Shown here piece by piece: positions 27,001 to 30,000 of a stretch of DNA of 64,000 nucleotides. Position numbers: made by a program. Source of the DNA: Escherichia coli (GTDB lineage: Bacteria > Pseudomonadota > Gammaproteobacteria > Enterobacterales > Enterobacteriaceae); the NCBI RefSeq assembly GCF_050920415.1, contig NZ_CP169309.1; one strand, 5' to 3'. How positions within the stretch are numbered: position 1 is the first letter of the stretch; every line of letters starts with the position of its first letter.

Positions 27001-30000
27001 TTGATATCTCTGCTCCACGGGGTACACCTATTTACGCCGCGGGTGCAGGAAAGGTGGTGTATGTGGGCAACCAGCTGCGTGGCTACGGTAATCTCATCAT
27101 GATTAAACACAGTGAAGATTACATTACGGCTTACGCCCATAATGACACGATGCTGGTAAATAATGGGCAAAGCGTGAAGGCTGGGCAAAAAATCGCCACT
27201 ATGGGGAGCACTGATGCGGCATCTGTTCGCTTGCATTTCCAGATTCGTTACCGTGCTACGGCAATTGATCCGCTGCGTTACTTGCCGCCTCAGGGCAGCA
27301 AGCCAAAATGCTGATGGCGAATTAATCAGCAGTCAGCAGCGCGGCACTTGCTAAGAAGAGCGTAAGGTTTATAATGCCTTACGCATCTCGAAGCGGGCGT
27401 AGTTCAATGGTAGAACGAGAGCTTCCCAAGCTCTATACGAGGGTTCGATTCCCTTCGCCCGCTCCAATTTATCTTCACCTCACCAACCTGCCATTTTTGT
27501 TGTATCTGATTATCTATATTATCTTAATTCAATCGCTTCAGACTTTTCGCAATCGCCGTAATACTTCCCCATTTTTTTGTAAATAAAAGCGTTTACGCAA
27601 TGCAATCCATTTGTAACAACCCAGGTAAAATACCTTATTTTCAAGTTGTTAAATAAGTGGTTATCTACGCTTTTAACAAACGATAGATGGAATATTTTAT
27701 GAAAGGGAAATCTGCATTAACTCTTCTGCTCGCTGGTATATTTTCGTGCGGCACATGCCAGGCGACAGGGGCAGAAGTGACGAGTGAATCTGTATTTAAC
27801 ATTCTTAATTCCACGGGGGCAGCAACAGATAAAAGTTATTTATCGTTAAATCCAGATAAGTATCCTAATTATCGTCTTCTGATTCACTCAGCCAAATTAC
27901 AAAATGAAATAAAGAGCCACTATACCAAAGACGAAATTCAAGGATTGCTAACATTAACAGAAAACACACGAAAGTTAACGTTGACGGAGAAACCCTGGGG
28001 AACGTTTATTCTTGCTTCTACTTTCGAAGATGACAAAACAGCGGCAGAAACCCACTATGATGCTGTCTGGCTGAGGGATAGTTTATGGGGCTATATGGCA
28101 TTAGTATCAGATCAGGAAAATAGGGTAGCTGCAAAAAAGATTCTGCTCACCCTGTGGGATTATATGTCTACGCCCGACCAGATTAAGCGGATGCAGGACG
28201 TCATTAGCAACCCAAAACGACTGGATGGAATTCCCGGGCAAATGAATGCTGTGCATATCCGATTTGACAGCAACTCCCCCGTGATGGCAGATGTGCAGGA
28301 AGAAGGCAAGCCGCAGCTGTGGAACCATAAACAAAATGATGCGTTAGGTCTTTATCTTGATCTCCTTATACAAGCAATCAATACTGGTACTATTAACGCT
28401 GAAGATTGGCAAAAAGGTGACCGATTAAAATCGGTTGCGCTGCTGATTGCTTATCTGGATAAAGCCAATTTCTATGTTATGGAAGATTCCGGAGCGTGGG
28501 AGGAAGATGCCCGATTAAACACATCTTCCGTTGCACTGGTGACCTCTGGACTGGAACGTTTATCAAACCTACTCTCGAAGAAAGACTCTGTTTTTATCTC
28601 TGATTTACTACGCGAAGCTAAAGCCAATGAACTGGATGAACCACTTTCAACAACGAGGTTGAACCACCTCATAGATAAAGGTTATGAAAGAATAACGCTA
28701 CAGCTTGATTTAGGGGGAGAATCTCCTGGTTATCTGGAAAAAGATAAACATTACAGAGAAGCTGATGCGGCCTTACTTAATGTTATTTATCCTGCAAATC
28801 TTTCAAAGATAAATACCAGAAGAAAAGAGCAAGTTTTAAAAATAGTTAAAAAACTAGCAGGTCCGTATGGTATAAAAAGATACGAGAAGGATAATTATCA
28901 GTCGGCAAATTTTTGGTTCAATGATATTAAAACTGATACTGATGAAAATTCACATGCGAAAAGAGAAAAGAGCTTCATTCCATCAACAGAAGCAGAATGG
29001 TTTTTTGACTCATGGTATGCAAAATCAGCAGCAATTGTTTATAAAGAATCAAGAAAAGAAGAATATTTGAATGACTCAGTGCAATTTATGAATAGATCAT
29101 TGGCCCAAATAACAGGCGAGAATATGATTGGTGCAAATGGCAGGAGCGTACCTGAAATGGCACTTCCCGAAAGCTATAACTATATCCACAAGTCAGGAAC
29201 TTTGCATGAAGCGCCAAGCCCTATCATTCCGCTAAACTGGTCGAAAGCCTCAATGACTCTTATGTTGAAAGAAATGTCCAACCTTATCAATGATGAGGGA
29301 ATTAAATAGTTTTCATAATGAGGCGGTCCTGGATTAAAAGGACCGCTCAAAGAGAAATCGAAAGGGGAGGTAAAAGTGATCAATAAATTACTGTTAGCTT
29401 ACCTGATAGGTCTGGTTGTGACATCGACTTTAATATTTATCTTCTCGGAAGAAAAAGTAACATATCGGTTGTTTGCTGCAATAATTACAGGTTTAACCTG
29501 GCCGCTTAGTCTCATTCCTTCCATTATAAGTCTCATGATTCGTAAATCCGACTAACAAGAAAATTATATGATCGATTAAGAAAAATAGAATCGAACAGGA
29601 GAATAAAATATATGCGGGGAGTAACAAAACACTCGCAGTGCGTTAATGTGTAACTAACAAATATGATTTGTATTGAAAATAGTCACCAAACAAGTGTTAT
29701 AAGAAATACGGGGTATGTTTAAGTAAAACATATCAACAGTTGCAATTCTGTATATGGACAGGATGACTTACTACTGTAAGTGGCTGATAGCTATTCGCTC
29801 ATAACAAAATGATTATTTTATAAATAGGAATCATCACTTTTTAATCATGTTTTTATTGTAAGTTTATGGAGAATGAGAATATGGAATAAGGAGATGAAAC
29901 ATGATTGAAGAAGGGCTGTTACTTCCAATGAATGTTTTGCTTCAAGGACAGAAGTTAACCCTACTGGACCCTGAAATGTGGTTCTTACGGGGAAATGAAA

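Follow-up and report, generated by a model that had tools for sequence, protein, structure and literature searches.

A putative third GhoT/OrtT-family paralogue of Escherichia coli, encoded beside the glycoside hydrolase gene pkgA in the ETT2 island

Two small membrane toxins of Escherichia coli K-12 share the Pfam family PF10753 (Toxin_GhoT_OrtT): GhoT (YjdO, b4559), the toxin of the type V GhoT/GhoS system, and OrtT (YdcX, b1445; ydcX is the old name of ortT), an orphan toxin. Both cause toxicity, membrane damage and loss of ATP, and the F38R substitution abolishes the toxicity of GhoT and reduces that of OrtT (PMC4344625). Here we describe a gene of this family in a 64,000-nt stretch of E. 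coli DNA (contig NZ_CP169309.1, assembly GCF_050920415.1), called the window below. The gene, ECs3735 of strain O157 Sakai, encodes a protein of 59 residues (aa) and is located at the glyU-proximal edge of the ETT2 island (ETT2, type III secretion system 2 of E. coli), directly downstream of pkgA, which codes for a glycoside hydrolase of family 15 (GH15). Comparison of sequences makes it almost certain that ECs3735 is a real gene and a member of PF10753, and indicates that its product is a third, divergent E. coli paralogue in the GhoT/OrtT family of inner-membrane helical-hairpin peptides of about 57 aa. By analogy with GhoT and OrtT, we consider it probable (roughly 60%) that the protein is a membrane-damaging toxin.

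The translated product, VINKLLLAYLIGLVVTSTLIFIFSEEKVTYRLFAAIITGLTWPLSLIPSIISLMIRKSD, matched the PF10753 profile with 45.1 bits (E 1.2e-11; gathering threshold 22.1 bits), residues 4–46 being aligned with profile positions 3–46 of 55. Its identity to K-12 GhoT is 39% (18 of 46 residues, E 2e-12), and to OrtT about 25%. In an alignment of 25 family sequences, T41-W42-P43 are invariant and Y9, R31, G39, L44, S45 and L46 are conserved to at least 90%; all of these residues are present in the ECs3735 protein, with Y9 in helix 1, R31 following the loop and the TWP motif in helix 2. The hydropathy profile has two peaks and runs parallel to those of GhoT and OrtT. An AlphaFold2 model based on a 25-sequence alignment (mean predicted local distance difference test score 91) is a helical hairpin: helix 2–23 is joined by the four-residue loop SEEK to a second helix (28–40 and 46–58) that has a kink at TWPLS. 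Hydropathy and model thus agree with the two transmembrane segments proposed in a preliminary description of this stretch. A sequence search of the PDB found no solved structure of a relative.

The likeness to GhoT includes membership of the same Pfam family, similar size (57 aa in GhoT versus 59), a two-helix hydrophobic hairpin, the TWP-x-SL motif, and Y, R and G at matching columns. Unlike ghoT, ECs3735 has a GTG start, lacks an adjacent ghoS and is found in the ETT2 island downstream of a GH15 gene; its product has Ile36 in place of Phe38, an acidic loop (SEEK versus SHEK in GhoT) and an additional C-terminal RKSD. OrtT resembles the ECs3735 protein in being unpaired and in belonging to the same family and fold class. 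We nevertheless rejected the possibility that ECs3735 is an ortT orthologue, because the identity is only about 25%, the locus is different (ortT lies between yncL and ydcY) and ECs3735 falls into a separate, GH15-linked sub-clade.

ECs3735 is located in a 591-nt spacer of 33% GC between pkgA and eivF, a gene for a 249-aa AraC-type regulator. Since open reading frames (ORFs) of at least 59 codons were present in 505 of 2000 shuffled versions of this spacer (25%), the length of the ORF is not evidence of a gene on its own; in addition, ETT2 is widely degraded and the gene has been lost from most E. coli genomes, as would be expected of a chance ORF or of a decaying remnant without function. The above-threshold match to PF10753 argues against such an interpretation, and so does the conservation of the frame. 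All sampled E. coli alleles, and E. albertii as well, retain both the frame and its length of 59 codons; in Yersinia the frame has 57 codons. Among seven E. coli alleles, 8 of the 10 variable sites in the ORF are third codon positions. Counting by the Nei–Gojobori method gave a ratio of nonsynonymous to synonymous substitution rates (dN/dS) of 0.04 between the window allele and the allele of contig L018 (seven synonymous differences and one nonsynonymous), 0.13 in comparison with E. albertii, where the length is exactly 59 codons, and 0.18 between two Yersinia enterocolitica lineages. These values indicate that the gene is under purifying selection. All lineages of the clade have a purine run resembling a Shine–Dalgarno (SD) sequence ahead of the start codon. 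Homology, polymorphism pattern, selection and translation signals are four independent lines that agree on the gene call, and the conservation data effectively refute a chance or decaying ORF. Conservation of the reading frame in relatives was the check that the preliminary description had named, and its claim of a genuine gene at this position between the GH15 gene and eivF holds, including coordinates, strand and translation. Two antisense ORFs (Table 1) were rejected, because the variable sites cluster at third positions of the plus-strand frame.

The GTG codon is preceded by the ribosome-binding site AAAGGGGAGG, which bears out the strong SD sequence reported earlier. Other E. coli alleles carry GTAAGGGAGGT in place of AAAGGGGAGGT, with one G fewer (GGG versus GGGG in the window allele). 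This difference touches the choice of start codon. In many gene callers' models the product is a 78-aa form initiated at an upstream ATG (window position 29318). In the window this ATG is out of frame with ECs3735, and no in-frame start codon is present upstream of the GTG. It opens a 22-codon upstream ORF, MRRSWIKRTAQREIERGGKSDQ, which overlaps the SD sequence and start codon of ECs3735; the 1-nt difference in most other alleles joins the two frames and gives rise to the 78-aa database models. Because the frame of the extension is not conserved among alleles, the extension is probably not coding, and the 78-aa model was rejected. The NCBI annotation pipeline PGAP also selects the 59-aa form, and the E. 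albertii homologue starts with an ATG one codon downstream of the position of the E. coli GTG. We conclude from these comparisons that the 59-aa protein is the correct product.

The gene had been described as unannotated, which proved wrong. In a sample taken across the E. coli matches, RefSeq/PGAP names it "GhoT/OrtT family toxin" in all 12 genomes with full coverage of the ORF. The window encodes the same protein as O157:H7 (WP_001301699.1), and this exact sequence is found on more than 1,000 contigs under the name "MULTISPECIES: GhoT/OrtT family toxin [Enterobacteriaceae]". The name does not derive from an NCBIfam model in the library that we scanned, since no family-level match was obtained there (best YijD, 14.7 bits versus a cut-off of 127). 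In a review of ETT2, ECs3735 is tabulated as a 180-bp gene with homologue ydcX and the product "inner membrane protein", and the adjoining ECs3736/pkgA is described as "phosphorylase kinase and glucoamylase" (PMC3977695). In strain EDL933 the tag should be z4199, judging from the numbering of O island 115 (OI-115), where eivF is z4198 and the island end z4200. A toxin–antitoxin inventory of one adherent-invasive E. coli strain contains ghoT and ortT as the only PF10753 genes; that strain may lack the ETT2 copy (PMC7232551). The gene and its family assignment are therefore already known from RefSeq, UniRef and the ETT2 literature. The additions made here are modest: confirmation of the 59-aa start, and the GH15-linked sub-clade and positionally conserved hairpin described below.

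A gene for the antitoxin GhoS (PF11080) was found neither beside ECs3735 nor elsewhere in the 64-kb window. Translated searches with K-12 and Pluralibacter GhoS produced only noise in the window (best E 0.04, about 29 kb away), and the same two proteins matched nothing in the E. albertii contig (L004), the two Y. enterocolitica contigs (L005 and L006) or contig L011, all of which carry relatives of ECs3735. The Pluralibacter homologue served as a positive control: a PF11080 ghoS gene is located immediately downstream of it. With no GhoS gene found, ECs3735 is an orphan in the sense of OrtT. The unpaired PF10753 homologues of Serratia and the GhoT–GhoS pairs of Pluralibacter represent the two other context classes of the same family; their proteins end in SLPV[A/V]LLFSLF rather than in SLIP[A/S], and none of their genes adjoins a GH15 gene. 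A fourth context class is represented by a further E. coli paralogue, P0142, of 59 aa (L020:30–209), which is found in a lambdoid prophage region with a Q-antiterminator-like gene, a Fic gene and a hok/gef gene as neighbours.

An orphan gene could still be controlled in trans, as a type V toxin under the chromosomal GhoS or under MqsR and hence as part of the ghoST network. A ghoS gene does exist elsewhere on the E. coli chromosome, and the ECs3735 ORF contains three GCU sites, which are preferred by MqsR, compared with two in ortT and none in ghoT. However, GhoS fails to neutralise OrtT, a much closer GhoT paralogue (63% identical) (PMC4344625), and no lineage of the clade has a linked GhoS gene; we regard control in trans as very improbable.

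Other classes of small toxins were also considered. Among the short membrane peptides, TisB, HokB, Ldr, Ibs and the phage holins depolarise the inner membrane, or make it permeable, when they are over-produced. The ECs3735 protein would resemble small type I toxins and holins in its mode of action only, without any relationship in sequence. Phage holin profiles (PHROGs) gave only weak, non-specific membrane matches (best E 0.33), and no endolysin gene neighbours ECs3735, as would be expected in a lysis cassette. No family among the PADLOC models of anti-phage defence matched the protein. A scan of positions 27000–31000 against Rfam detected no antisense small RNA around the gene and no family besides a tRNA-Gly.

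An exhaustive phmmer search over 1.84 billion representative proteins returned 13 proteins at E ≤ 0.001. The closest relatives outside E. coli are a 59-aa protein of E. albertii (61% identical) and 57-aa proteins of two Y. enterocolitica lineages (44–45%); further close relatives are encoded on contigs P0117 and P0118. E. albertii and the two Yersinia lineages have the small gene directly downstream of a GH15 gene whose product is 538–541 aa long, with a gap of 66–102 nt. In L011 the order is different, the small gene being 857 nt upstream of the GH15 gene, beside invH and fragments of insertion sequences (IS). Contig P0118 ends 145 nt after the small gene, before adjacency to GH15 can show. 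Adjacency is thus seen in five of six sub-clade lineages (E. coli, E. albertii, two of Y. enterocolitica and L011), the sixth contig being too short. The other flank varies: it is made up of genes of the type III secretion system (T3SS) in E. coli and E. albertii, of a DUF6710 or LysR gene in Yersinia and of invH with IS fragments in L011; neither Yersinia contig (4.7 and 6.1 kb) contains T3SS genes. The preliminary description, which was right about a genuine two-segment membrane protein gene, had missed both its GhoT/OrtT paralogy and the fact that the conserved neighbour is GH15 rather than eivF or the T3SS.

Several properties of the sub-clade would be expected if the small protein were a functional partner of PkgA and not a stand-alone toxin, that is, a holin-like permeabiliser or accessory subunit which assists the Sec-exported hydrolase in entering or leaving the periplasm or links its activity to the membrane. 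Adjacency to GH15 persists in five lineages despite the differing other flank. The two genes appear to co-diverge: relative to E. albertii the identity is 77% for GH15 and 61% for the small protein (88% for EivF), and relative to Yersinia 59% and 45%. The GH15-linked genes form a sub-clade of their own with the signature SLIP[A/S], while the rest of the PF10753 family has SLPV. The support for this clade is moderate, as neighbour-joining placed the GH15-linked genes and P0118 together in 109 of 200 bootstraps, and the linkage may be due to shared descent of a single island fragment. No GhoT-like ORF, whether called or not, accompanies GH15 homologues at a similar distance (55–59% identity to the Yersinia enzyme): this is the case in L021/L022, where an IS66 element is directly downstream of GH15, in L023, where GH15 is located beside a prgH-prgK-orgA block, parAB and a sopD-like gene, and in L024, from Commensalibacter. 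The pairing therefore characterises a single Escherichia/Yersinia lineage of the module. Moreover, PkgA has a signal peptide of its own, a hairpin separates the two genes in four lineages, the small gene of L011 is 857 nt upstream of GH15, the O157:H7 small gene is intact despite a frameshifted pkgA, and the match to holin families is negligible. The pairing may reflect shared descent instead of a functional coupling of the small gene with GH15; we judge a partnership with PkgA to be unlikely. A broader version, in which the whole GH15-linked sub-clade is a dedicated membrane partner of PkgA (for example in holin-like release or regulation) and an ancestral cargo module of T3SS islands of the SPI-1 type (SPI-1, pathogenicity island 1 of Salmonella) rather than a toxin of a toxin–antitoxin system, is also doubtful, and slightly more so.

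Some further observations concern the GH15 enzymes. The pkgA gene is intact in the window, and the Sec-type signal peptide of its product speaks against a role of PkgA as an effector of the ETT2 T3SS, as had been speculated in the literature. GH15 homologues 57–62% identical to the Yersinia enzyme adjoin SPI-1-type T3SS genes in unrelated contigs, at L023:5001–6647 (prgH-prgK-orgA, parAB, sopD-like gene) and at L011:4198–5823 (invH). The GH15 subfamily is also represented in Commensalibacter, Elusimicrobiota, Planctomycetota and Bdellovibrionales. Between L005 and L006, both attributed to Y. enterocolitica, dS is about 1.0 for GH15 and dN is 0.24 for the small protein; probably, the two contigs belong to distinct species or subspecies, or their copies were acquired separately.

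A stable hairpin (z-score −3.5 to −4.4) is found between pkgA and the SD sequence of ECs3735. E. albertii and the two Yersinia lineages have hairpins of unrelated sequence at the equivalent position, and in Yersinia these are followed by moderately U-rich sequence. The hairpin is probably a pkgA terminator or attenuator, which is the simplest reading, or a structure in the 5′ untranslated region of ECs3735. If it terminates or attenuates pkgA transcription, ECs3735 would be expressed by read-through; alternatively, a promoter within the 3′ end of pkgA would drive transcription of ECs3735. A candidate σ70 promoter is present there (Table 1), for which the evidence is weak: a consensus scan of the region revealed five sites versus 5.0 expected, which is not above chance.

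A 451-nt query region was matched in 3,263 of 5,426 complete E. coli genomes. The query was covered in full in 1,323, always on the chromosome, while the remaining genomes, about 1,940, match only its first 73 nt. In one such genome the deletion was mapped: the sequence resumes at window position 38050, so that 8.7 kb including ECs3735 and the genes from eivF through eivI are removed. The junction shows imperfect microhomology (ATAATGAG versus ACAATGATG). A second, smaller ETT2 deletion, equivalent to window positions ~30020–35000, was found in strains WCHEC035123 and 789 (L015 and L016); through it, the 5′ end of eivF has become joined to the 3′ portion of the gene for FHIPEP (eivA), and ECs3735 and pkgA are left intact. 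In strain MFDS1022581 (L001), which is 100% identical to the query over its 451 nt, an IS3-family element (L001:6546–7693) is inserted between ECs3735 and eivF, within window positions 29701–29900; the element is absent from the window. A phage collection contained no match to the small gene, and the sole match in a plasmid collection is a 4.9-Mb record that resembles a misfiled chromosome. A scan of a genome collection with the clade alignment confirmed one locus, an E. coli-like contig in a metagenome-assembled genome labelled "MAG: Collinsella sp." (L007, JAIJJM010000090.1). Since the protein encoded there is 97% identical to that of the window, this contig most likely represents E. coli contamination or mis-binning.

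We now return to the probable role of the ECs3735 protein as a membrane-damaging toxin. As judged from GhoT and OrtT (PMC4344625), the protein, once produced, would insert into the inner membrane and damage or depolarise it, and this would lower ATP and slow growth. It would act as an unpaired toxin, like OrtT. Basal expression could be held down by the GTG start codon, the hairpin that separates pkgA from the SD sequence, and the position of the gene on a horizontally acquired island rich in AT (37% GC).

Several observations weigh against this proposal. At 39% and 25%, the identity to the two tested toxins is low. The protein has a charged C-terminal tail, RKSD, that is absent from both, and the counterpart of GhoT Phe38 is Ile36 in the window allele and Val36 in other E. 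coli alleles. No known toxin–antitoxin arrangement includes a linked GH15 gene, and this conserved linkage may hint at a different function. The 8.7-kb deletion has removed the gene from about 1,940 of the 3,263 genomes that carry the locus, and the gene is thus dispensable. Beyond the table of the ETT2 review, no data on expression, toxicity or function of ECs3735/Z4199 were found in the literature.

Many E. coli membrane proteins of about 50 aa modulate transporters or sensors. In line with this, the ECs3735 protein could be a benign inner-membrane protein with a regulatory or structural role that descends from the GhoT/OrtT family and has lost toxicity. Its strong divergence from the tested toxins, the replacement of Phe38, the added charged tail and its persistence without a visible antitoxin all fit such a loss, and purifying selection demonstrates a function but not which one. 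On the other hand, all family-invariant residues are kept, and the column of Phe38 is occupied by I, L, V or F across PF10753, i.e. it is merely hydrophobic; because of this variation Phe38 is not family-defining. The genomic context suggests no specific partner or target of a benign protein, and OrtT is likewise unpaired and yet toxic (PMC4344625). A benign role is therefore, in our estimate, a minority possibility, and a membrane-damaging toxin is the interpretation that we favour. The features of the locus are collected in Table 1.

Table 1. Features of the ECs3735 locus; positions refer to the window.
Feature	Position	Strand	Details
ECs3735 (WP_001301699.1), GhoT/OrtT-family small membrane protein gene	29376–29555	+	59 aa; GTG start, TAA stop
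GH15 glycoside hydrolase gene pkgA (ygeQ remnant in K-12)	27687–29309	+	540 aa; Sec-type signal peptide MKGKSALTLLLAGIFSCGTCQA
Shine–Dalgarno sequence AAAGGGGAGGT	29361–29371	+	purine-rich; core GGAGG ends 5 nt before GTG
Stable hairpin UGAG-CGGUCCU / AGGACCG-CUCA	29319–29349	+	directly after GH15 stop; ends ~12 nt before SD; no U-tract
Candidate σ70 promoter TTGAAA-18-AATGAT	29265–29294	+	9/12 match; inside GH15 3′ end; weak evidence
Upstream ORF	29318–29386	+	22 codons
Antisense ORFs (rejected)	29399–29536; 29493–29627	−	
eivF	29901–30650		249-aa AraC-type regulator
tRNA-Gly	27393–27463		Rfam
8.7-kb ETT2 deletion	~29323–38049		from inside the hairpin after GH15 stop into eivJ

Thus, a third, island-borne GhoT/OrtT paralogue, as indicated by sequence, joins the toxin repertoire of E. 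coli strains with intact ETT2, including O157:H7. Beyond the tidiness of annotation its importance is slight. If the protein is toxic, nature would offer a second case of a membrane toxin without a partner, one that might help pathogenic lineages to tolerate stress or to persist. The conserved pairing with pkgA provides a testable hypothesis on the role of the GH15-linked sub-clade; if a module with PkgA were real, the GhoT/OrtT fold would gain a physiological job outside stress dormancy.

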